DNA of 64,000 nucleotides from an uncultured Beijerinckiaceae bacterium. GTDB lineage: Bacteria; Pseudomonadota; Alphaproteobacteria; Rhizobiales; Beijerinckiaceae. The notes below the pieces were generated by a model. That model saw nothing but the letters and a program-made list of their open reading frames with translations, made no database searches and was not told the DNA's origin. Made by a program: the position numbers and the translations under genes. This document shows, piece by piece, positions 1,102 through 64,000 of this stretch. The stretch covers positions 2,605 to 66,604 of the forward strand of contig CAXSDP010000014.1 of the NCBI GenBank assembly GCA_964235705.1. The letters run 5' to 3'. How positions within the stretch are numbered: position 1 is the stretch's first letter; the number at the start of each line of letters is the position of its first letter.

Positions 1102-3669
1102 ATGGGCGTGCCAAAGGTGTCTTCAGCAACGGTCGACGTATCGGACTGCGAGCGCGAGCCGGTCCACATCCCCGGGGCGATCCAACCTTTCGGCTTCCTC
1201 ATCGCCTTCGCCTTGCCGACGTGGCGCATCGCGCACGTGTCCGCCAACGCCGCCGCCGTTTTCTCGGTCGAGGCCCCGACGCTCATGATCGAGGCGGCCA
1301 TGGAAACGGTCCTGCCGCCCAAGATCATCCACGACCTCCGCAACGTCTTCCAAGCCGCCATGATCTCGGGCTTGGCCGAACGCTTGAGCAACGTGCCGGT
1401 GGGAACGCGGCAGGAAGCGTACGACATCATGATCCACGCGTCCGGTCAGCTGGCGATCGCCGAGTTCATCCCGTGCGCGGGCGCCGATACGACGCTGGGG
1501 GACGCGACCGCGCTCGTGAAGACGGTGATCGACCGGCTGCGCCGCACCACCAGCTTCAAGACGTTCCTGATCTCGGCCGCCCGCCAGATCCGCGCCGTCA
1601 CCGGCTACGATCGCGTGATGCTCTACAAGTTCCTCGAGGACGACACCGGCGTCGTCGTCGCCGAAGCGTTGCGCGCCGGCATGCCGCCGTTCCTGAACCT
1701 CCACTACCCCGCGAGCGACATCCCGGCGCAATCTCGCGCGCTCTTCCGACGCCAATGGCTGCGCTTCATCGCGACCGTCGATTACACGCCCGTGCCGATC
1801 GTACCCGCGTTGACCGAGAAGGGCGCGCCGGTCGACCTCACCTTGTCGACGCTGCGGAGCGCCTCGCCCATCCACCTCCAATACCTACGCAACATGGGCA
1901 GTGCGGCGACCCTGACCGTCTCCATCATGCAGGGCGACCGATTGTGGGGGCTGATCGCCTGCCATCACGACACGCCGCGCCGGATTTCGGCGACGACCAG
2001 CGCCGCGATGGAGCTGCTGGCGCAGGTGCTGTCCACGCAGATCGAGGCCAAGCAGCAGCACGACGCGTTGGCCGAGATCGCCAAAGGTCGTGAGATCCAC
2101 GACCGCTTGATCGCCAGCATGGAACCCGAGGAGACGATCTTCGACAACCTGCGGCGGTTCAACACCCTGATCCAGGACATGATCCCCTGCGATGGAATCG
2201 GCATCTGGGCCAACGATCGCTTCGAGGCGGAAGGCGCCGCGCCGCCCCATGACGCGATCCCCGACCTGATCCGCTTCCTCAACGGCAAGCACGCGAACCA
2301 GGTGTTCTCGACCGACAGGCTCTCCGGGCACCTGCCGGACGCGACGCGCTACGCCCCCACCGTGAGCGGCTTGCTCGCCATTCCCTTCACGCGCGCCCCG
2401 CAGGATTTCCTGCTGCTGTTTCGTCGGGAGGTGATCCAGACCGTGAACTGGGGCGGCAACCCCAACAAGGCGGTCGAGATCAACGGCACCATCGAGATCG
2501 AGGGCGTGGGCCACCGGCTCAGCCCCCGGACCAGCTTCGCCGCGTGGAAGGAAACCGTGCGCGACCGATCCCTACCGTGGCGCGGCAGCGACTTGATCAT
2601 CGCCGAGACGTTGCGCGTTTCGCTGCTCGACGTGATCCTTCGACGCGCCAACATCATCGATCGGGAACGACGGGCCGCGCAGGAGGGGCAACTCCTCCTC
2701 GTCGCCGAGCTCAACCACCGGGTCAAGAACGTCTTGAGCGTCATTAGATCGCTCGTGCGGCAGAGCCAGCAGGGCGCGACGTCGCTGGAAGCCTTCACCA
2801 ACGACCTGCAGAATCGTATCCACGCGTTGTCCGTGGCGCACGACCAGCTGACCCAGGGGCATTGGAAAGCCGCGCCGCTGCTGACCTTGATCGAGGCGGA
2901 GGCGCAAGCTTGGACCCATGTCGAGGACGCCCGCCTGGCGCTATCCGGCCCGCCCGTCATGATCGAGGCCCGCGCCTATCAGACGCTCGCCCTCGTGCTT
3001 CACGAGATGATGACGAACGCCGCTAAATACGGCGCCTTGAGCGTGGAGGAGGGATGCCTCGCCATCACCTGGTCCCTTGAGAAAGCCGGCGACCTCGTCC
3101 TCGTCTGGGAGGAGCGCGGCGGACCACCCGTGACGCCGCCGAAACGGCGAGGATTCGGGACGATCGTCATCGAGCAGTCCATCCCCTTCGAGCTTCGGGG
3201 CGAAACGTCGGTCGAGCGTCGTCCGGAGGGTATCCGCGCCCGTTTCGTGATCCCTTACGACTTCGTGCAGAAGGGTGGCGAGGAGGTGGTGTCACGTCGA
3301 TCGCCGGTGATCGCGCCGCAGGCCGACCTGAAGGGCAAGAACCTGCTGCTGGTGGAGGACAGCATGATGATCGCCCTCGACGCGCAGACGATGCTTCAGA
3401 ACTGCGGCGCCGAGGTTGAGATCGCGGCGACGACGAGCGATGCCCGCCGCGCGCTCAAGCTGAACGTTTTCGACGCGGCGATCCTGGACGTGAACCTTTA
3501 CATCGAGACGAGCTTCGCCATCGCCGAGGACCTGCAGGACCGTGCCATCCCCTTCGTCTTCGCCACCGGTTACGGCGAAACGATCAGCCTCCCCGAGCGC
3601 TTCAAGGACGTCCACGTCATATCGAAGCCCTACGCCGAGGACACGCTCCGCGCCGCCTTGGCCGCCTGA
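1102..3669 (+). CDS. bphP: Bacteriophytochrome: PAS-GAF-PHY + HWE histidine kinase + receiver domain
   Basis: N-terminal chromophore Cys (DCEREPVHIPGAIQP), PASDIP, PIHLQYLRNMG, PRxSF (PRTSF), ELNHRVKN H-box, C-terminal REC (LLVED...LDVNL...KP). Confidence 0.93.
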   Translation: MGVPKVSSATVDVSDCEREPVHIPGAIQPFGFLIAFALPTWRIAHVSANAAAVFSVEAPTLMIEAAMETVLPPKIIHDLRNVFQAAMISGLAERLSNVPVGTRQEAYDIMIHASGQLAIAEFIPCAGADTTLGDATALVKTVIDRLRRTTSFKTFLISAARQIRAVTGYDRVMLYKFLEDDTGVVVAEALRAGMPPFLNLHYPASDIPAQSRALFRRQWLRFIATVDYTPVPIVPALTEKGAPVDLTLSTLRSASPIHLQYLRNMGSAATLTVSIMQGDRLWGLIACHHDTPRRISATTSAAMELLAQVLSTQIEAKQQHDALAEIAKGREIHDRLIASMEPEETIFDNLRRFNTLIQDMIPCDGIGIWANDRFEAEGAAPPHDAIPDLIRFLNGKHANQVFSTDRLSGHLPDATRYAPTVSGLLAIPFTRAPQDFLLLFRREVIQTVNWGGNPNKAVEINGTIEIEGVGHRLSPRTSFAAWKETVRDRSLPWRGSDLIIAETLRVSLLDVILRRANIIDRERRAAQEGQLLLVAELNHRVKNVLSVIRSLVRQSQQGATSLEAFTNDLQNRIHALSVAHDQLTQGHWKAAPLLTLIEAEAQAWTHVEDARLALSGPPVMIEARAYQTLALVLHEMMTNAAKYGALSVEEGCLAITWSLEKAGDLVLVWEERGGPPVTPPKRRGFGTIVIEQSIPFELRGETSVERRPEGIRARFVIPYDFVQKGGEEVVSRRSPVIAPQADLKGKNLLLVEDSMMIALDAQTMLQNCGAEVEIAATTSDARRALKLNVFDAAILDVNLYIETSFAIAEDLQDRAIPFVFATGYGETISLPERFKDVHVISKPYAEDTLRAALAA

Positions 3670-6429: not shown

Positions 6430-6515
6430 GACCCCTTGGCGGAATCGGTAGACGCACAGCACTTAAAATGCTGAGCCCGCAAGGCGTCCGGGTTCGAGTC
6501 CCGGAGGGGTCACCA
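6430..6515 (+). tRNA. tRNA-Leu: tRNA-Leu (anticodon TAA)
   Basis: Acceptor GACCCCT/AGGGGTC + ACCA; D arm GCG...CGC; anticodon stem CAGCA-CTTAAAA-TGCTG; long variable arm; T arm CCGGG-TTCGAGT-CCCGG. Confidence 0.97.
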
Positions 6516-21896: not shown

Positions 21897-21923
21897 CGAG
21901 GGCGCCCACGGGCCTCAGACGCG

Positions 21924-21957
21924 AAAAAAGCCCCGCCTCGCCGGAGCGAGACGGGGC
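21924..21957 (-). terminator. Rho-independent terminator ending the late/lysis operon
   Basis: GCCCCG-CTCGC hairpin with CGGA loop followed by TTTTTT on the minus strand. Confidence 0.8.
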
Positions 21958-22052
21958 GAAGTCATGGGAGGAAACGCCCTACGTGGGCGTGGACTGATGA
22001 TGCAGGATCCGTGCTTGCGCGAACCTGTCTATGTAGCCGCAGCCTGTTGAGG

Positions 22053-24391: not shown

Positions 24392-25276
24392 CTAGTTGGA
24401 GGACGCGATCGCGGCGGTGCCGGATGGGATCGACACGCCGCCGGGCACCCCGCTGATCGCGGCGAAGGCGGCGCCGCGCTTGGCGAAGACGCTCGCGCGC
24501 AGGAGGAGCGCGATGGTGGCGGCGATCGCCGCGATCGCGACGCCGAGCACGAGCCAGCTGAGTGCCGTGTCGGCGGCGAGCGAGGCGGCCAGGATGCCGC
24601 CGCCGGCGAGCGTCACGCCGACCGCCTCGTTCGTGTTGGTGGAAGCCTGGGCGGCGCGTGCCGCCAGGTGGGCGTTAGCGTCGCCGGGATGGATCCCCAC
24701 CTGGTGCGCGTAGGCCTCCGCGAGGCGGGTGTCATACCCCTTGGTCGCCGGTCCGTTGTAGAGGCGGGCGAAGCTCGGCCAGTCCTTCGCGACGAGGGCG
24801 GCGCGCATGTGCGGGCTGGCGACGATGAAGTGCGCCATGGCGGCGAGGTGCTCGTCCTCGCCGCCGGCGACGAAGGCAGTCACCATCGCGGTCGCGCTCG
24901 GATAGCCTGCGGCGGCGTGGTTCTCGCCGAGGATCTGCGGCAGACCCCACGAGGTGGAGCGAAGCGCCGCCTCCTCGTCGATCGCCATGGCGGCGGCGAT
25001 GCGCCCGTAGGAGTCGTGCGGGTACGGCTTGGCGCCCCAGCGCGGGTAGGCGAGGCCGGACGCCACGGCGCGGTCGCGCTTGTCGCCCTGGAGGTTGCGG
25101 TGGAAGATGTGCGGCTCGAACAGCGCCTTGGGACGGTGTTCGTCGTCGAAGCCGGAGCAGGACGCCTCGACCTGGATGTCGGCGAGCAGCGCGTCGACCG
25201 CGCAGCCGATCAGGGCGGCCGCCGCGGCGACCCCGCCGTCCGTGCGCTTGGTCGCGGTGCCGGTGAAGTTCAGCAT
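24392..25276 (-). CDS. Endolysin, N-acetylmuramidase (DUF3380-type) with C-terminal hydrophobic tail
   Basis: QVEAS...LFEPHIF; STSWGLPQILGEN; FARLYNGP...YDTRLAEAY. Confidence 0.9.
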   Translation of the reverse strand: MLNFTGTATKRTDGGVAAAAALIGCAVDALLADIQVEASCSGFDDEHRPKALFEPHIFHRNLQGDKRDRAVASGLAYPRWGAKPYPHDSYGRIAAAMAIDEEAALRSTSWGLPQILGENHAAAGYPSATAMVTAFVAGGEDEHLAAMAHFIVASPHMRAALVAKDWPSFARLYNGPATKGYDTRLAEAYAHQVGIHPGDANAHLAARAAQASTNTNEAVGVTLAGGGILAASLAADTALSWLVLGVAIAAIAATIALLLRASVFAKRGAAFAAISGVPGGVSIPSGTAAIASSN

Positions 25277-53806: not shown

Positions 53807-54054
53807 CAGAAGCCCGAGTACCAGCCGTTGTCGCCCCGGGGCGCGAAGCCGCCGCCGGTGCCGCGGTCATGGGCGACCAGCACGGTCGCGGAGCTCTGCG
53901 GCGCGATGCCGAGCGCGCGGCGGATGATGTCGCGGACCCGCAGCATCTCGTCGAGCGAGCGGAAGGTCGAGCTCTTTCCCTCGTAGGACACGGAGGTGAC
54001 GCCAGCGGCGATCGCGTTCTCGATTGCGTCGAGCTGGGCTTGAGAGAAGGCCAT
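53806..54054 (-). CDS. Head-tail joining protein (gpW-like)
   Basis: LDAIENAIAAGVTSVSYEGKSSTFRSLDEM. Confidence 0.9.
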   Translation of the reverse strand: MAFSQAQLDAIENAIAAGVTSVSYEGKSSTFRSLDEMLRVRDIIRRALGIAPQSSATVLVAHDRGTGGGFAPRGDNGWYSGF

Positions 54055-56099
54055 CAGGATCTCCCGCGCTGCATCCAACCGCCCCCGGGTGAGCCGGGGC
54101 GGAAGTTGGAGTGCTGGCGCTCAGGGTCGGGTTGGAGCCAGCTCGTCGCCGGCGGCGATACGGGTGGCGAGGGCGGCGGGGCGGCCGGCTGCGGTGGGGT
54201 CGGGTCGCTCGCCGCCGGCATGCTGCCGGTGGCCACGAACAGCGCGTTCTTGGCTTGCAGGCCGCACACGGCCGCGTAGGCGTAGACGAAGCAGACGCCG
54301 GCCTCGCGGGCCTTGTCCTTCGGCTTCTCCCATTCGGTGAAGCCCTGCCGACGGACGACGAGCCGCTCGCCGGTCATCTGCTCGAAGAAGTCCTCGTCAA
54401 TCTTCCGCGAGCCGGCGGCGCCGTCCTGCGGGAAGTGCACGTAGCGCACGCCGACCTTCTCGATGGCCAAGCTGCCGTAGACGAAGTCGCGCGCGGCGTT
54501 GCCGCCGATCAGGTAGAAGACGTTGCCAAGTTTGTTGGTCGGCTCGCGCGGCCAAACCTTCGAGCGGCGGCCCATCGTCTCCGAACGACCCTTGATCGCC
54601 CAGATGCGCCGGCCGCGCCGCTCGTTGGCGAAGGCATAGGTCTCGGCGGTGTGGTGGCCGCCGGAGTCGATGCAGGTCGCCTGGATCGCCAGCGTCTTGC
54701 CGTCCGTCCGCGTGAAGCCGCGCAGCAGCAGCCGGTCGAGCGCGTGCCAGACCTCCGGCTGCGCGGGATCGCCGGGCAGCACGAAGTGGCCGACCAGCGC
54801 GCATTCGAGGCCGCGACCCCAGGCCCAGACGCCGGCCTCGAGGCGCGCCTTGACGCCGGACTGGACGTCGACGCCGACCGTCAGGAACTCGGCCCAGGCC
54901 GGCACCTCGGCCCCGTAGACCTCGCCTCGGGCGAGGAACTTGGAAGCTTTGACCTCCTGGCCGTATCGCGCCTTGTAGGGGCGTCCGAGCCGCAGGTTGA
55001 CGAAGGGCTGCACGAGCGAGGCCGGGTCGTCCTGCGCCTCCAGCCACTCCTGGACGATGATCGGCCAGGCCGCGTTCGGGTTCAGCGACATGCCGGTCCA
55101 GAGGTGGAAGCCGACGTGACCCGACGTTCGCGCCATGGCGGTGGCGCGCCACTCGCCGCGCGCGTCCATCCAGGCCTTGTGGCTCTCATCGATGATGCAG
55201 CCGCAGGTGCCGACGTACCAGACCTTCAGCAGGCGGCCGTCCGCGTCGAGGTCCCACTTCAGCCCGTGCGCGGTGTCCTTGCCGCCCCAGTCAAGGTACT
55301 GCCAGCCGTCGAGCCGGCCGGCGGCCTCGGAGCATTGCGGGCACGGCACGAAGTAGCGCCGCTGGTCGCTCTGCAGCCAGAGCTTCCAGATCCGCGACGT
55401 TTCCTGGAGCAGCGGGGTGGACCCCCTGACCTGCTTCCGGTTCCAGAACGTCTCGCCACGGGTCCAGAACAGCTTGAGCTTGTCGCCTTGCGTCTTCGCC
55501 CCCGGCGTCCAGCCGTCGCCGTCGACCTCGTCGGCAAACAGGAAGCGCGCCGAGTAGCGGCGGAACGCGTCGTCCGACGCCGCGCCGACGATGCGCACGG
55601 AGGCGCCGTTGGCGAGCTGGTAGAAGGTCGCCTTGTCCTGTTTCTCGCCCTTGCGCACCGGTCGGAGCAGGCCGGCGAGCACCGGCGTTTCGCGCAGCAT
55701 CGGCGCGATCTCGCTGCCGCCGAAGTCCTCGGCGTCGGGGATCGTCGGCTGCGCCAGGCAGCACAGCGTCGGGTCCTGGTGGAGGTGGTAGGCGGTGGCG
55801 AGCGTGGCGCAGCGCGTGTAGCCGACGCGCGCCGCTTTGAGCACGGTGACGAGCGGGACGTGCGGGTCGCACATCGCATCGAGCAGGCCGCGCTGGTAGC
55901 CGTACAGCGTGACAGGACCGCACTCGGCCCCCGTCCCCTTAGGGATCCAGCCGTGGCGCTCCGCCCACTCCGACCCGGACAGGTGCGGCTTGAAGACGAG
56001 CGCCGCGTCAATCTGGGCGGTGAAGGCGCCTTGGAGCTCGGCTAGGCCGCAGGCGTAGTCCCCCCTACGGTGCCGGCTGATCCTCTGCGTCGCCGTCAT
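54054..56099 (-). CDS. Terminase large subunit, lambda gpA family
   Basis: KAARVGYT; FADEVDG; STP; YFVPCPQC; GVDVQ; IDSGGH. Confidence 0.93.
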   Translation of the reverse strand: MTATQRISRHRRGDYACGLAELQGAFTAQIDAALVFKPHLSGSEWAERHGWIPKGTGAECGPVTLYGYQRGLLDAMCDPHVPLVTVLKAARVGYTRCATLATAYHLHQDPTLCCLAQPTIPDAEDFGGSEIAPMLRETPVLAGLLRPVRKGEKQDKATFYQLANGASVRIVGAASDDAFRRYSARFLFADEVDGDGWTPGAKTQGDKLKLFWTRGETFWNRKQVRGSTPLLQETSRIWKLWLQSDQRRYFVPCPQCSEAAGRLDGWQYLDWGGKDTAHGLKWDLDADGRLLKVWYVGTCGCIIDESHKAWMDARGEWRATAMARTSGHVGFHLWTGMSLNPNAAWPIIVQEWLEAQDDPASLVQPFVNLRLGRPYKARYGQEVKASKFLARGEVYGAEVPAWAEFLTVGVDVQSGVKARLEAGVWAWGRGLECALVGHFVLPGDPAQPEVWHALDRLLLRGFTRTDGKTLAIQATCIDSGGHHTAETYAFANERRGRRIWAIKGRSETMGRRSKVWPREPTNKLGNVFYLIGGNAARDFVYGSLAIEKVGVRYVHFPQDGAAGSRKIDEDFFEQMTGERLVVRRQGFTEWEKPKDKAREAGVCFVYAYAAVCGLQAKNALFVATGSMPAASDPTPPQPAAPPPSPPVSPPATSWLQPDPERQHSNFRPGSPGGGWMQRGRS

Positions 56100-56800: not shown

Positions 56801-57619
56801 TCAGGCGGCCTCGCTGGCGCCCCTCGGCGCCTCGATTGGCAATGCGGGGGCCAGCATCGCGACTAGGCCCGTGTGGGCCTCCCAGCGCCGCACCGCGACG
56901 TCGACGTAGACCGGGTCGATTTCGATCGCGTGGCAGCGCCGGCCGATCGTCTCGGCGGCGATGATGGTCGTGCCCGAGCCCACGAAGGGGTCGTAGACCG
57001 CGTCACCAGGTCGGCTGTGGTTCTCCATCGGCCGCTGCATGGCGAGCAGCGGCTTCTGCGTGCCGTGACCAGTCTCGGATCGTCGGTGTGGGATCTGCCA
57101 CACCGTCACCTGTTTGCGGTCGCCGGTCCACCGTGCGGTGCGCCCGCGCCGGACCGCGTACCAGCACGGCTCGTGACGCCAATGGTAGGCGCCGCGCGAG
57201 ATGATGAGACGACCCTTGTCCCAGATGATTTGCGAGCGGATCAGGAAGCGACACGCCTCCAGGCCGGCGCGCACGACGTGCCCGTTCAAAGCACCGTGCC
57301 AGACGTAGGCGACATCGCCGGGGAACAACGCCCAGGCGGCGCGCCAGTCGGCGGTGTCGTCGTTGGCGACCTTGCCGATCGCGCCGACGACCTTACGCCG
57401 TCCGCTCGCAGCGTCGACGATCTTCGCGCGCCAAGCCGGATCGTAGTTCACGCCGTAGGGTGGGTCGGTCACCATCAGGTGAGGCACGGCGCCGGCGAGT
57501 GCCAGCGCCACGATCGCGGGATCGGTGGCGTCGCCGCACACGAGGCGATGGTCACCGAGCAGCCAGACGTCGCCTGGCCGCGTCACCGGCTGAGCCGGAG
57601 CAGTCTCGATTTGTTGCAT
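56801..57619 (-). CDS. Orphan DNA methyltransferase (N6-A/N4-C, beta class)
   Basis: TDPPYG; HGTQKP; VYDPFVGSGTT; no cognate nuclease nearby. Confidence 0.93.
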   Translation of the reverse strand: MQQIETAPAQPVTRPGDVWLLGDHRLVCGDATDPAIVALALAGAVPHLMVTDPPYGVNYDPAWRAKIVDAASGRRKVVGAIGKVANDDTADWRAAWALFPGDVAYVWHGALNGHVVRAGLEACRFLIRSQIIWDKGRLIISRGAYHWRHEPCWYAVRRGRTARWTGDRKQVTVWQIPHRRSETGHGTQKPLLAMQRPMENHSRPGDAVYDPFVGSGTTIIAAETIGRRCHAIEIDPVYVDVAVRRWEAHTGLVAMLAPALPIEAPRGASEAA

Positions 57620-59673: not shown

Positions 59674-59893
59674 GCGCGTTCGTCTCGGCTGGCTTGAAGT
59701 CGCCGTCGGCGTCGAGGTGCACGGGCGGCCATCCGGCTCGCCGGATGTTCGCGGACCTGATGAGCCGGTTCGGCAGGCGAACGAAAAGACCGCTGAGCAG
59801 CTGGGCGACCACCACCAGCGCCCAGAACATGAGCCAGAAGGCGAGCCACCAGTGCACGGTCGCCCACGTCCAAAAGCTTGACGTCATCATCAC
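59663..59893 (-). CDS. Small Trp-rich membrane protein
   Basis: FWTWATVHWWLAFWLMFWALVVVAQLL; overlaps the recombinase stop. Confidence 0.6.
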   Translation of the reverse strand: MMMTSSFWTWATVHWWLAFWLMFWALVVVAQLLSGLFVRLPNRLIRSANIRRAGWPPVHLDADGDFKPAETNARDR

Positions 59894-60738
59894 CCCTTCA
59901 CGATGGCTTTGTGCTTGCCCCGTTTGAGGACGTGCGTTTCCGCACCCTGCCAGCGGAACAGGTACTCGACGGCACCGCGGTACTTCGGGTTATCGAGGAT
60001 GTAGCCGACCTGGCTTGGGCGCCATTGGCCGCCGCGCTTGGTCGGCACCTTCTCGGCGTTCAGCGCGTCGGCGATCGCCTGAAGCGTCGCGCCGCCCTTC
60101 CGCAACTCGAAGATGCTTTCGACTGTTTTCGAGTGACGCTCGTCGATGACGAGCCCACCCTCGCGGTCGCGGCTGTAGCCAAGCGGCGCCGAGCCGCCGG
60201 CAAATCCACCCTTCGTTGCTTTCTCGCGGCGCCCACCGTGCGTCCGCTCGGTGATAGCTTGTCGTTCCTGCTCGGCCATGCCGGCGAGCACCGCGAAAAC
60301 CGTGCGCCCCATCGGGGTCGCCGTGTCGATCGGCTCCGAGACGGAGCGGATGACGACGCCATAGCGCTCGGACAGGTCGTTCACCGCCGTCACGGCGTAG
60401 ACGATCTGGCGCGCGAGGCGATCGAACTTGTAGACCAGGAGCACCGCGAAGGCCTGCGCCTCCGCGAGTTCGAGGATGCGCGCGAACCCGGGGCGTTCCG
60501 CCGGCTTGGTCGCGCCGGACACGCCGGGGTCGGCGATCACGTCGACGAGCTTATAGCCCTGCGACTCCGCGAAGGCGCGGACCGCGCGCTGCTGGCTCTC
60601 GAGGCCCTGGCCGTGTTGCGCCTGCTCTTCCGTCGAGACCCGGATGTAGGCTGCGGCCTTGGTGGCGATCTCGGCCTTGGCCTCGCTGGCCTCGCCGCTC
60701 CGCTTTTTCAGCCGCGCGACGCGCTTTGAAGCGAGCAT
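59890..60738 (-). CDS. Serine recombinase (resolvase catalytic + recombinase DNA-binding domain, no zinc ribbon)
   Basis: AYIRVSTEEQ; DPGVSG...RPG; KFDRLAR; AEQERQAITERT; APLGY...ILDNPKYRG. Confidence 0.93.
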   Translation of the reverse strand: MLASKRVARLKKRSGEASEAKAEIATKAAAYIRVSTEEQAQHGQGLESQQRAVRAFAESQGYKLVDVIADPGVSGATKPAERPGFARILELAEAQAFAVLLVYKFDRLARQIVYAVTAVNDLSERYGVVIRSVSEPIDTATPMGRTVFAVLAGMAEQERQAITERTHGGRREKATKGGFAGGSAPLGYSRDREGGLVIDERHSKTVESIFELRKGGATLQAIADALNAEKVPTKRGGQWRPSQVGYILDNPKYRGAVEYLFRWQGAETHVLKRGKHKAIVKG

Positions 60739-60785
60739 CGCGCAACCCATTGTTATTGTTTGTTTTTCTTACTTAGACGCTGTTC

Positions 60786-61051
60786 GTTTCCGAACTCTCA
60801 AGAGACTTCGGAAACAGCCGCCGCGACCCGGTACATCCGCGAGTCGTCGGCGGCCTCGATCCACACTAGGATCGGTGGAAATGCGGACCGGACGCGACCC
60901 CGGTCATGTGGACGATAGGCGTGCGACGACGCCTCGTTTTACCTGCTGGGACGCCGAGGCACCCCTGGCTCACGGCGTCTGCCCGCGAGCGTCTCGTTCC
61001 ACTGATTGGCGGGTTTGCTCCCCGCAATCGCATCTCCGCGCCCGTTCGGGC
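60786..61051. ncRNA. Candidate structured RNA (eight consecutive stem-loops) upstream of the recombinase
   Basis: Back-to-back stems of 4-9 bp; no convincing ORF; strand unknown. Confidence 0.4.
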
Positions 61052-61458
61052 AGAGTTCAAGCCGCTTGCGCCCGGCCAGTCGTCCGCGCTTCGCTGCGGC
61101 TGTTCGCATTCCATGTCCGAGGATGAGGCGGCCTCGTTTAACGTCGTGGGTGGACGCCCGTCAGGGAAGGTGTGCAGGCCGCTCGCCTCGGCCGGCCTGT
61201 GCCGGGCTGGGCGACGTTCGACGTGCGAAGCATCAGATGATGACGATTGTTTCCGGCACGACGGCTTCGATCAGCGTTAAGGATCGGCAGTCGGTGTGAG
61301 GCCGGTATGGGTCAGGTGATCGGAAAGCGACTTAAGCGCTGCATCAGACTAATGCGGATGGGGTCCGCGCTACTTCATGGCGGCCTCCCGCGCATGTGGT
61401 TTGCCCGCTCGACTCAGCGATCAGGGCCGCACTACCATCCCGCAGCGGCTGGGAAACT

Positions 61459-61860
61459 CTACGCGCTCCGGCGCCCGCGCACCTCGACCGCCACGCTGCG
61501 CCGGCCGACCTGGATCGAACCAGGTCGCAGCACCGGCAGCGGCTTTGGACTCGCCGGCACGGTGCGCAGCTCGGCGGCTTTGCGCAGGATCTCGCCGCGC
61601 AGCTCGCTCTTGGCTTCGACGAAGGCATGGGGCCGTGTCCGTGACACGCCGGGAAGCTCGAGCACCTTGGTGGCGATCTCTTCCAGCATGTCGGCGACGG
61701 CGCGGGGCGTCACGTGCGGAACATCTCGCGCATGGTGTCCCCCAGAAACAACTTCGCCCGGCCACCTTCTCAGGTTCCGGGCGCGGCCTCTGCCAATGCC
61801 AAATTGGTACGCGATCCGGGCTCCCACGTCAACTGACGCCAACTGAGGAAAACTTGACAT
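61459..61860 (-). CDS. Hypothetical protein
   Basis: MSSFPQL... with plausible helical core; no family recognised. Confidence 0.5.
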   Translation of the reverse strand: MSSFPQLASVDVGARIAYQFGIGRGRARNLRRWPGEVVSGGHHARDVPHVTPRAVADMLEEIATKVLELPGVSRTRPHAFVEAKSELRGEILRKAAELRTVPASPKPLPVLRPGSIQVGRRSVAVEVRGRRSA

Positions 61861-61982
61861 CTCGGCTTTCTTATTCCGAGGCAACACTCACGTCCTGTGG
61901 CGGAGTTGGTATATGGCCTGGAGGCGGTCCTTCAATCCTGCGGCGGTGGTGCTCGACGTACAAAAATCTTTAGGTCGTTTTT

Positions 61983-63998
61983 TCAATTGACCCAATCGAG
62001 TCGCAAACTATCCGCAGCATCCCGGCTCACGGCAATTCCAAGCGATGGTGCTATATCCTCCAAACCGCCGAGGATTTGCGCACGGGTCGAAGGTCCGACA
62101 TCAGCGAACAACTCGCGTATTTGATCTGTCACCGCCCGGCCCTCTCGTCGGATCAACGTGGCGAAGAACGAATGAGTCGAGTAACTGGGGAATAACCTTA
62201 CTAAGCGCAGCGTCGCATCCGTGCTGATGTGACGGTCCGTCCGTTCAAGGGCACGCATTGCCGTGGCCACCCAGGTCCAATCATCGCGGTCGCCGTGCAC
62301 TCCCCGTGCCGCGAAGGCTTCCAACGCTGCGACGAGCATCCCAGCTCCATCGCCGCCTACCTCCACCAACCGAGAAATAAGCAGCAGTCGCTCAGCGCTG
62401 TCTGGGAGGTTCGCAATGACTTCCGCAGCCCACTCAAAGAGAAAAGTGCGAGACGCCGACACGAAGTCCGATGCGAGGAACGGACCTCTCGCAGCAACAT
62501 GCCGCTGGTCTCCCGGTACCAAGTTCGATCTCCAGACCATCCAGGAGACAAGATCACCTACATATTCAAGTCCTTGCAGTTTGCATTTTATAGTCTGCAA
62601 GCCAAGAAGTTTATGTTCCTCAGAAAAGTAGGGAAACGATGAGCTCCAGATTTTACAGTTCTCTAAATTTAAGTTTTCAGAAAGACGGGCTAGTAGTATA
62701 GCCTCAGAGGCGGCATCTTTTAGTGACGCCGCGCACACGATCGCATCAAATAGGACCATTCTACTCTCAGCACTAATGACGAGCAGCCGTATTTCTTCGG
62801 CGAGAGCGATGCCGTTGGATGCCGCGTCATGGTGAACATCGATCAGAGCGTTGAAGATCGCCGCTCTTGGCCTCTCCGAGGCCGCGTCGCCGACGACTAT
62901 GTTGGCAAGATGCTCCTGCCACCAGTTTGTGCTCAGGTAGGCCTCCGGAAACTCCTGCCATAGTCGAACGCCGTGGCCATGCTCCTGTGCCGCGTTGTCC
63001 GCCAAAGTTTTAAGGAGAGACGAGATCTTGTTTCGACCGACCGAACTGTTCTGTCGCTCCGCGCCCCACAGGCAAGCGACCGCGATCTTTGCTGACAAAT
63101 CCCGGCGCTCCGAGATTTCAGTCCAATTAACGGCCTTCATGTTTCTGAGACGGTAAAGCGCAGAGGCAATGACCTCTTCGACTATGAAGCCTGGCTCCGA
63201 CGATCGGGCTACCAGAAGCTGGACCGCATCGGGTCCGATCATCCGGACCGCATCCATCCAAGACCGACCCCACAAGGATCGAAAATCGTGTTTCGCCAGC
63301 AAAGTCTTGAAGGCGCCCACCGCTATCTCGCGATCGCCAAGCTTCACCAAGAGGGCGCCCTGAGACACCTCGTCGCCGGTCGTCACTAGGAGGTGGACTA
63401 GCTCTGGCGTAGGTGGAAATGCGAGCCCTTCACTAAGGAGCTCAGCGATGTCCTTCTGGACCCGCCAGCTTCCCGTGCGCCAGGCGGCGAGCAATCGCGT
63501 CACGATCCTGAGCCGGAATTCCGGGGAGGCGCGCCCGCCATTCACCACAGAGCGCGCGATAACGCGCAGTGAGGTGTGGAAAAAGTCGTCAGCCGAATCG
63601 ATTTGGGCGATCAGGGCAGGTTCGGAATGTGACATTCGCTCCAAGGCAAATTGGACGGCCTGCACCCAGGGGCGACGCGCAATCTGCTTGAACCAGGCTC
63701 CGACCTCTGGCTCGCCAATCGAAAGAGCGCACCCCGCGAGATACTCCTGGACCGTCGCGATAGGAAAACCGACTCGAGCTCCGCGCCGGACTAGCAATCC
63801 GCACTGAAGCAGGTCATCAATGCAATCATCGCCAAGTGCTTGCCCAAGGCTTGCGCCCAACATGCGCCGGGCCGCATCCTCGGCTTGCGCGATCTCGTGT
63901 CGCCGCAGATCGTCGAGAGCCAAGATCTCAGCCGCCCGTCGAAGGTTTGTGAGCGATGCACGAGGCTGCGATCCAGTCTTATGTCGCTGCGGTGCAAG
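61983..63998 (-). CDS. C-terminal part of a large NACHT/STAND-like NTPase (5'-truncated by window)
   Basis: Frame open to the window edge; VGFPIATVQEYLAG resembles the NACHT-associated F-x-H-x-x-x-QEYLAA motif; helical-repeat-like remainder; AT-richer codon use. Confidence 0.6.
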   Translation of the reverse strand, partial: LAPQRHKTGSQPRASLTNLRRAAEILALDDLRRHEIAQAEDAARRMLGASLGQALGDDCIDDLLQCGLLVRRGARVGFPIATVQEYLAGCALSIGEPEVGAWFKQIARRPWVQAVQFALERMSHSEPALIAQIDSADDFFHTSLRVIARSVVNGGRASPEFRLRIVTRLLAAWRTGSWRVQKDIAELLSEGLAFPPTPELVHLLVTTGDEVSQGALLVKLGDREIAVGAFKTLLAKHDFRSLWGRSWMDAVRMIGPDAVQLLVARSSEPGFIVEEVIASALYRLRNMKAVNWTEISERRDLSAKIAVACLWGAERQNSSVGRNKISSLLKTLADNAAQEHGHGVRLWQEFPEAYLSTNWWQEHLANIVVGDAASERPRAAIFNALIDVHHDAASNGIALAEEIRLLVISAESRMVLFDAIVCAASLKDAASEAILLARLSENLNLENCKIWSSSFPYFSEEHKLLGLQTIKCKLQGLEYVGDLVSWMVWRSNLVPGDQRHVAARGPFLASDFVSASRTFLFEWAAEVIANLPDSAERLLLISRLVEVGGDGAGMLVAALEAFAARGVHGDRDDWTWVATAMRALERTDRHISTDATLRLVRLFPSYSTHSFFATLIRREGRAVTDQIRELFADVGPSTRAQILGGLEDIAPSLGIAVSRDAADSLRLDWVN

Positions 63999-64000
63999 CG

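Follow-up and report, generated by a model that had tools for sequence, protein, structure and literature searches.

We analyzed a run of eight inverted repeats (stem-loops SL1-SL8) at positions 60786-61051 of a 64-kb stretch of DNA from an uncultured Beijerinckiaceae bacterium, hereafter the window. The run lies at the head of a myovirus-type prophage late operon, which protein family searches of the window placed on the minus strand, and it stands between a gene for a short serine recombinase and a small gene that heads the transcription unit (Table 1). The recombinase gene precedes the terminase genes both here and in a related locus, L017. The initial annotation, which missed the conserved small gene bounding the stretch, had proposed the eight hairpins as a single candidate noncoding RNA (ncRNA). 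Our comparisons lead us, with moderate confidence, to a composite reading in which SL1 would be a DNA site of the recombinase, SL3 and SL2 together would be a hairpin signal in the late transcript, and SL4-SL8 would be chance-level hairpins in a variable slot. On this reading a hairpin run in GC-rich DNA that resembles one RNA would consist of three unrelated modules, only two of them above chance.

Table 1. Positions of the repeats, neighboring genes and other features in the window
Feature	Position	Strand	Details
Serine recombinase, 286 aa (amino acids)	59890..60750	-	Resolvase catalytic domain and 'Recombinase' domain
SL1, palindrome	60786..60815		13-14 bp arms, 2-bp centre (TTTCCGAAsTCTC-NN-GAGAsTTCGGAAA); 13+2+13
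SL2, GC-rich hairpin	60817..60854	-	Outer stem GCCGCCG/CGGCGGC, variable inner stem
SL3, 6-bp hairpin	60857..60874	-	CGAUCC/GGAUCG; CCGAUC/GAUCGG in relatives
Non-coding spacer with SL4-SL8	60875..61104		81% identical to closest relative (G007); no excess folding
353-nt stretch of the window	61088..61440		Absent from G007 and run X2; from alignment, joint 61087>61441
Small gene, 84 aa	61459..61713	-	GTG start; first long open reading frame (ORF) of the transcription unit; has homologues
Small-gene leader	61710..61832	-	Promoter-like element, hairpin, upstream ORF (uORF)
DNA methyltransferase	56801-57619	-	Late operon; several small ORFs between it and the recombinase
Large terminase	54054-56099	-	Late operon
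Portal, head protease/major head protein, tail sheath, tail tube, tape measure, baseplate, tail fibres		-	Late operon, after terminase
Endolysin	24392-25276	-	Late operon
mmgR (suhB family) sRNA (small RNA) gene	21915-21995	-	
tRNA-Leu(UAA)	6430-6515	+	

Folding of the eight inverted repeats

Base-by-base reading recovered all eight inverted repeats, and the 266 nt that hold them fold more stably than shuffled sequence on both strands: -129.5 kcal/mol on the plus strand (z -4.12) and -144.5 kcal/mol on the minus strand (z -5.64), with none of 200 dinucleotide shuffles as stable in either case. When fold energy was first regressed on GC content, the minus-strand fold ranked first and the plus-strand fold 39th among 1064 window-strand samples of 266 nt taken from the 64 kb. 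The excess is confined, however, to 60786-60884, the part that contains SL1-SL3. Compared with shuffles, the segment holding SL2 and SL3 (60816-60884) reached z -4.2 on the minus strand and -3.5 on the plus strand, and its equivalent in G007, the closest relative, reached -3.9 and -3.0, respectively, whereas 60885-61014 (SL4-SL6) gave -1.6 and +0.1 and 61015-61104 (SL7, SL8 and beyond) gave 0.0 and +0.5. The 353-nt indel, which served as an internal control, gave -0.7 and +0.3. Positions 60885-61104 therefore behave like shuffled sequence, and because the excess folding is local, SL1-SL3 stand beyond chance while SL4-SL8 are what is expected of sequence with 66% GC.

The description of this region as an ORF-poor stretch of about 700 nt was accurate, in that 708 nt (60751-61458) carry no conserved ORF. 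A protein-coding reading of these positions was tried and rejected: the ORFs of 56-155 aa found there have no Pfam match, and the alignment with G007 contains indels of 1, 2 and 5 nt, differing stops and unshared ORFs. Nor did a curated RNA family emerge, in agreement with the initial annotation, which had recognized none. At the gathering score, Rfam matched only tRNA-Leu and mmgR in the whole window, neither of them near SL1-SL8, and a search of 60400-62100 at E<=10 returned three matches of 14-20 bits, far under their gathering scores.

A palindrome associated with a short serine recombinase

SL1 is complementary at 12 of its 13 arm positions around an AA/TT centre, a score that none of 200 shuffles reached. 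We compared 19 recombinase loci, including that of the window, among relatives of 58-95% identity (nine from genomes and ten from metagenomes; one metagenome locus without upstream DNA was excluded). This gathering of upstream regions, which the initial annotation had recommended, revealed a palindrome of the SL1 type upstream of the recombinase in 15 of the 19 loci. In ten of them it outscores every other 13+2+13 palindrome in the upstream 500 nt and at most 1% of shuffles match its score, and in five it is a degenerate copy recognized by eye. Four loci lack such a palindrome, one of which has just 117 nt of upstream sequence.

All copies have the core ..TCTC-NN-GAGA.. in common, and the arms vary with the enzyme: the clade nearest the window has the outer arm TTTCCGAA, a more distant clade has TTTATAAA, and the TTCCGAA type accompanies recombinases of 74-95% identity and the TTATAAA type those of 58-70%. 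The two central bases are non-palindromic in 15 of 15 copies (TT, AA, CT, CC, GG, AC, GA), as serine-recombinase crossover sites need for polarity. Mismatches between the arms show no RNA-type (G.U) pattern, and the genes flanking palindrome and recombinase vary between loci, from phage genes to unrelated unidentified ORFs.

With inverted half-sites, an asymmetric 2-bp centre and linkage to the recombinase across unrelated contexts, SL1 has the sequence features of a serine-recombinase crossover site. From these sequence comparisons we conclude that SL1 is probably a protein-bound DNA palindrome, the target of the adjacent recombinase, and not RNA; a recombinase dimer would bind it as double-stranded DNA. 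It is most likely the crossover site of the enzyme. While the association of site and recombinase is a direct result of the comparison, we infer catalysis at this predicted site. SL1 lies 35 nt before the recombinase gene and would thus probably serve as an autoregulatory operator as well, and against a recombination role it could be said that SL1 might be an operator only. A promoter within SL1, with TTGAGA as its -35 element, was considered and dropped, since G007, with an AA centre on that strand, does not preserve it.

The half-site architecture of SL1 and its position just upstream of the recombinase gene resemble those of res site I of Tn3/gamma-delta and of hix/gix of Hin/Gin, which consist of imperfect inverted half-sites of 12-14 bp around a 2-bp asymmetric centre, lie upstream of the gene and can repress it when bound. 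Unlike those systems, the present one shows no accessory subsites with the same half-site, no second site in the genome and no known enhancer. Allowing up to 3 mismatches, we found 8 half-site matches in the window versus 8.4 expected by chance, none of them in 60816-61104, so that no further subsites built on the SL1 half-site accompany it as they would in a multi-subsite res. The complete site, searched with up to 3 mismatches, is present once each in the draft assemblies G000, G007 and G015; these drafts thus contain no second copy of the kind that an invertase or excision switch uses. A single copy per genome fits action between sister copies and not an inversion or excision switch. The recombinase at SL1 might accordingly resolve dimers or concatemers, or cyclise terminally redundant DNA beside the packaging genes. 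A functional analogy is P1 Cre-loxP, where a phage recombinase acts on one short site, symmetric around an asymmetric centre, near packaging functions, a placement that would allow both cyclisation of terminally redundant DNA and dimer resolution. Unlike Cre, which is a tyrosine recombinase, the enzyme here is a serine recombinase, and its phage is chromosomally integrated in the assemblies examined.

Pfam assigns the enzyme the resolvase catalytic domain (PF00239, 2.6e-38) and the 'Recombinase' domain (PF07508, 6.4e-15), the latter match ending at position 87 of the 102 in the profile, and it carries no zinc-ribbon/coiled-coil domain. The missing part was not found in the small ORFs downstream, which have no Pfam match. 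The protein aligns with the N-terminal half of phage large serine integrases, CcrA/B/C and XisF, and the lengths of its relatives, all 280-297 aa, mark the short form as usual for the family and not a truncation. By comparison with these relatives, its true start is likely the second ATG at 60738 (MLASKR...). It therefore differs from resolvases and invertases in having the 'Recombinase' domain of large serine recombinases (LSRs) instead of a small C-terminal helix-turn-helix (HTH), and from large serine integrases in lacking the zinc-ribbon/coiled-coil domain. Its placement also differs from that of a large serine integrase. In G007, whose recombinase is 95% identical to that of the window, early phage genes continue upstream of the feature on the same strand (methyltransferases, thymidylate synthase, a PAPS-reductase-like gene and a primosomal protein gene), so that the recombinase gene and an intact site lie inside the phage, at the junction of early and late genes, and not at a prophage end.

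These results provide a subfamily of serine recombinases of about 285 aa with a candidate symmetric site of 28-30 bp, and such pairs of enzyme and site are raw material for genome-engineering tools. The short recombinase also offers a view of an LSR-type enzyme without the zinc-ribbon domain.

A conserved tandem hairpin in the late leader

SL3 lies 2 nt upstream of SL2 in the minus sense, and the two form a conserved tandem-hairpin element, of which SL2 carries the conserved loop CGGAUGUAC (plus strand 60831-60839). In the window only 1 nt separates SL2 from SL1. The first related pair was spotted in genome G009, 9 nt past the stop of the small-gene homologue there, and a pattern search added copies from G004 and G015. 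Across the family, SL2 patterns matched 108 of 401 genomes, mostly as GC-rich noise, and only the matches within the genus were real. Because this search was noisy, a covariance model (R1), built from five copies of the pair, was used instead. It found 8 copies in 7 of the 21 genomes of the genus (46-94 bits, E 1e-16 to 2.5e-6), none under stricter filters in 150 other genomes of the family, and one in the metagenome locus L068 (28 bits), whose recombinase is 63% identical to that of the window.

Pairing is kept in 91.5% of the alignment cells of the nine sequences, with two-sided changes at 7 pairs (13 cells), and none of 500 shuffles reached the observed paired cells, double-change counts or covariation score. 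When partners were slid out of register, 19-53% of cells paired and at most 2 pairs showed two-sided changes. The pattern is that of a conserved structured motif, as seen in a model-fitted alignment with eight of its nine sequences from one genus. The outer stem of SL2 is nearly fixed and the inner stem differs in sequence and length, while the loop CGGAUG(U/G/C)A(C/A) occurs in 9 of 9 sequences with an invariant CGGAUG core. Among the eight sequences of the genus, the sense strand has 9 cells with G.U pairs versus 2 with A.C, and substitutions between the window and G007 in local hairpins show the same sense-strand bias. The covariation check that had been proposed for the eight hairpins came out positive for SL2 and SL3.

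The hairpin pair also tends to keep its place in the operon: 7 of 9 loci have a small-gene homologue upstream of it and in the same orientation, 9 to ~880 nt away, and the next gene begins within ~20-80 nt past the pair. What separates the small gene from the hairpins differs between phages. G009 and G004 have nothing in between, G001 has a 57-aa ORF, and the two copies of G015 have 150 nt of non-coding DNA (contig 98) and a response-regulator gene (contig 136). In G007 the space is taken up by a 230-nt spacer with SL4-SL8, to which the window adds 353 nt. Downstream, the pair gives way to the palindrome and the recombinase in three loci (window, G007 and L068), and in six loci to a short ORF of 70-83 aa with, by eye, a hydrophobic N-terminus, which is missing in the window and G007. 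Recombinase, palindrome and hairpin pair also occur together in locus L015, from a cultured strain titled Beijerinckia sp. L45. Such ORFs were seen in L166, L167, L169, L163 and L164, three copies beginning ML(K/R)..L.(L/I)(I/L)C..S..P.AC.

Upstream, the small gene is preceded by a leader of its own. A promoter-like TTGACG (61832-61827) is separated by 17 nt from TACCAA (61809-61804), both read by eye; a promoter consensus scan called none. A GC hairpin with a U-rich tail follows (61784-61755), and then comes a 7-codon uORF (61733-61710), the stop of which overlaps with the small-gene start. This layout is conserved in register across loci of the genus (L123-L127, L164, L169), with uORFs of 4-8 codons, and one relative has a T7 run after the leader hairpin. 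The leader looks like an antitermination- or attenuation-controlled late promoter region. In late operons under antitermination control a terminator comes directly after the promoter, and in lambda, pR'-tR' likewise opens its unit with a promoter and then a hairpin with a U-rich tail. Within such a frame, SL3 and SL2 would constitute a second transcript-level signal in the late leader. The suggestion of a regulatory leader in the initial annotation thus survives in part: the region does lie in a late-operon leader that holds a conserved, covarying hairpin pair, and eight hairpins are not what the leader conserves.

Taken together, these sequence patterns suggest that SL3 and SL2 are most likely a cis-acting hairpin signal in the sense transcript that would affect termination or attenuation, read-through or stability ahead of the next gene. 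The pair would fold in the minus-strand late-operon transcript after the small gene and directly before the next gene, where its invariant loop and covarying stems might act as a sequence-specific signal on transcription, as a terminator or attenuator or by making polymerase read on, or on the stability of the transcript. Like intrinsic terminators and attenuators of the lambda pR'-tR' type, the pair is a GC-rich sense hairpin between genes, and the copy on contig 136 of G015 has a canonical terminator tail, a T6 tract 6 nt after the hairpin.

Several observations weigh against this reading. Unlike in intrinsic terminators, eight of the nine SL2 copies lack a clear U-tract (UGUUUCC in the window, CGTTTCC in G007, C-rich sequence in the remaining copies), there are two hairpins with a conserved loop, and a terminator consensus scan does not call SL2. 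Fitting the alignments (A7 and A9) to the model favours structure, and the sequences from a single genus are not independent. L068, with a first hairpin that may not be homologous, is the only source of four of the 7 compensatory pairs. In that locus (1583-1852, minus strand) an 89-aa ORF upstream of the hairpin, palindrome and recombinase is divergent, placing the hairpin in a divergent intergenic region of 142 nt, so that termination of an upstream gene is not a general role. Because G.T pairs stabilise single-stranded DNA too, the strand bias is no proof of RNA.

The same adjacency that links SL2 to the palindrome is compatible with a role at the level of DNA, in which SL2 and SL3 would be accessory elements, cruciform-prone or protein-bound, that set the synapse beside SL1 in a res-like manner. 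SL2 lies 0-1 nt from the palindrome in the window, in G007 and in the distant L068, and strong conservation of the stems together with an asymmetric centre would suit recognition by a protein. We nevertheless consider such a role unlikely. Five of the eight hairpin copies of the genus have no recombinase within 1.5 kb, G015 has a gene between hairpin and palindrome, and the half-site counts given above reveal no motif common to SL2/SL3 and SL1. Double-stranded DNA also leaves the 9-to-2 bias toward one strand unexplained, and the compensatory changes preserve pairing and not sequence. The independence of hairpins and enzyme, with 16 of the 19 other recombinase loci lacking the hairpins, likewise gives no support to the earlier speculation that the RNA is a partner of the recombinase.

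The initial annotation had further suggested a put-like antiterminator, and for SL3 and SL2 this would mean a cis-acting RNA that modifies RNA polymerase for read-through of terminators into the late genes. Such a function would suit the two adjacent hairpins, which span ~65-70 nt of the sense transcript between a promoter-plus-terminator leader and the late genes, as well as the absence of a U-tract from most copies, and the invariant loop and conserved stem sequence exceed the needs of a plain terminator. The likeness to HK022 put RNA is nevertheless one of size and position only, no curated RNA family is similar, one copy has a perfect terminator tail, and, unlike put, the pair follows the first gene of the unit and does not come right after the promoter. 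We therefore regard a put-like function as quite unlikely. More speculative, and in our estimation improbable, is that SL3 and SL2 represent a new class of cis-acting phage RNA that switches polymerase or a phage factor between stopping and late read-in and that, where the recombinase is present, is fused to its crossover site so that hairpin transcription and site occupancy would control each other. If true, the fused hairpin and crossover site would couple late transcription to resolution or cyclisation of the genome.

Very improbable, in our view, is that nothing beyond the recombinase site is functional, with SL2 and SL3 a relic of recent common descent among related prophages. The narrow distribution of the copies, nearly all in one genus, is what a relic would show, but their flanks are unrelated while the hairpins are kept, and both the compensatory changes and a loop that is invariant even in L068 argue against a relic. 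The single ncRNA of the initial annotation, as leader or recombinase partner, is scarcely credible and already largely refuted by the modular distribution, for although the whole stretch is the best minus-strand folder of the window and is conserved in G007 with some pair-keeping changes, its excess folding is gone once SL1-SL3 are removed, SL1 occurs with the recombinase without the rest, SL2 and SL3 occur without SL1 and without SL4-SL8, the modules are shuffled among phages, and of the changed pairs, counted on the minus-strand folds of the window and G007 themselves, 12 and 18 are kept against 14 and 15 broken.

The composite reading thus leaves, in prophage late leaders of lichen-associated Beijerinckiaceae, a tandem-hairpin motif that has covariation and an invariant loop and no Rfam match, and that is a candidate handle on the timing of late transcription in little-studied alphaproteobacterial phages. 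We regard the findings as modestly novel, comprising an uncharacterized short serine recombinase, its candidate site and a narrowly distributed, undescribed hairpin motif in phage leaders; a full-text literature search returned nothing, within the text it covers, on either the recombinase family or the hairpin motif.

The variable slot and the surrounding genes

Between the small gene and the hairpin pair lies what we regard as a variable non-coding 'cargo slot', whose hairpins SL4-SL8 are at chance level. Among 400 genomes of the family, homologues of the spacer were found in G007 only; part of it (60876-61024) had no match in 400 sampled genomes of the order, plasmids had none either, exact-pattern scans of viral contigs found none, and phage records yielded one 32-nt chance match. 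Run X2 repeats the sequence of G007. Positions 60885-61014 recur with different flanks in short contigs of two other runs (X3, X4) at ~88-90% identity. SL6 as first drawn is not kept in G007 on the minus strand, where an overlapping 8-bp helix is kept instead, and the sole match of the terminator scan, on the plus strand (60917-60934), compares with 2.6 expected. A remnant of a tRNA or attachment (att) site at 61047-61102 was considered and rejected: weak matches in family genomes fall, by eye, in ABC-transporter ATPase genes, and none of 8 checked loci has a tRNA or Rfam family. About 30 nt of these positions are 82-94% identical to a conserved segment present in many family genomes; the frame in the window is not kept in G007, and we took the resemblance as chance.

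The 353-nt indel is flanked by an 11-nt imperfect direct repeat (CGCTGCGGCTG at 61094-61104 and CGCAGCGGCTG at 61442-61452), and we found neither another genomic copy of it nor a family match, while its folding shows no excess. A relative of ~90% identity is present in run X4. Of 60400-61900, an RNA library covers only 61110-61285, by one contig (X8, 177 nt, 1 difference), and the indel could be a small expressed moron or sRNA, or the contig could reflect carried-over DNA.

Homologues of the small gene, at 30-58% identity, occur in 5 of 401 family genomes, all within the genus, as well as in L017 and L163. With the window protein as query, the 84-aa family was confined to this genus and the Rhodoplanes locus L017, always as the head of its unit. 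The protein has no Pfam, PHROG, NCBIfam or atlas match, and its predicted structure, two helices and a beta hairpin (pLDDT 78.6), has no fold match in the PDB at E<=0.001. A paralogue on contig 21 of the same genome adjoins a BrnT/BrnA toxin-antitoxin pair.

The whole stretch was found in one sequencing run only, from a lichen metagenome. Homology between the window and G007 ends at ~61845. Beyond this break, in the place of the early genes of G007, the window continues from 61983 to 64000 and on to near the contig end (G000:C14; L012 588-4241, minus strand) at a lower GC content (46-62%) with a single ORF of 1217 aa. This ORF has only faint P-loop/NACHT-like matches, the antiphage EruA model matching at E 4.5e-4, far under its cutoff, and the stretch could represent either a defence-type insertion or an alternative early module. 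At the other end of the window, mmgR and tRNA-Leu(UAA), the sole Rfam/ARAGORN matches of the window, mark host DNA left of the prophage.

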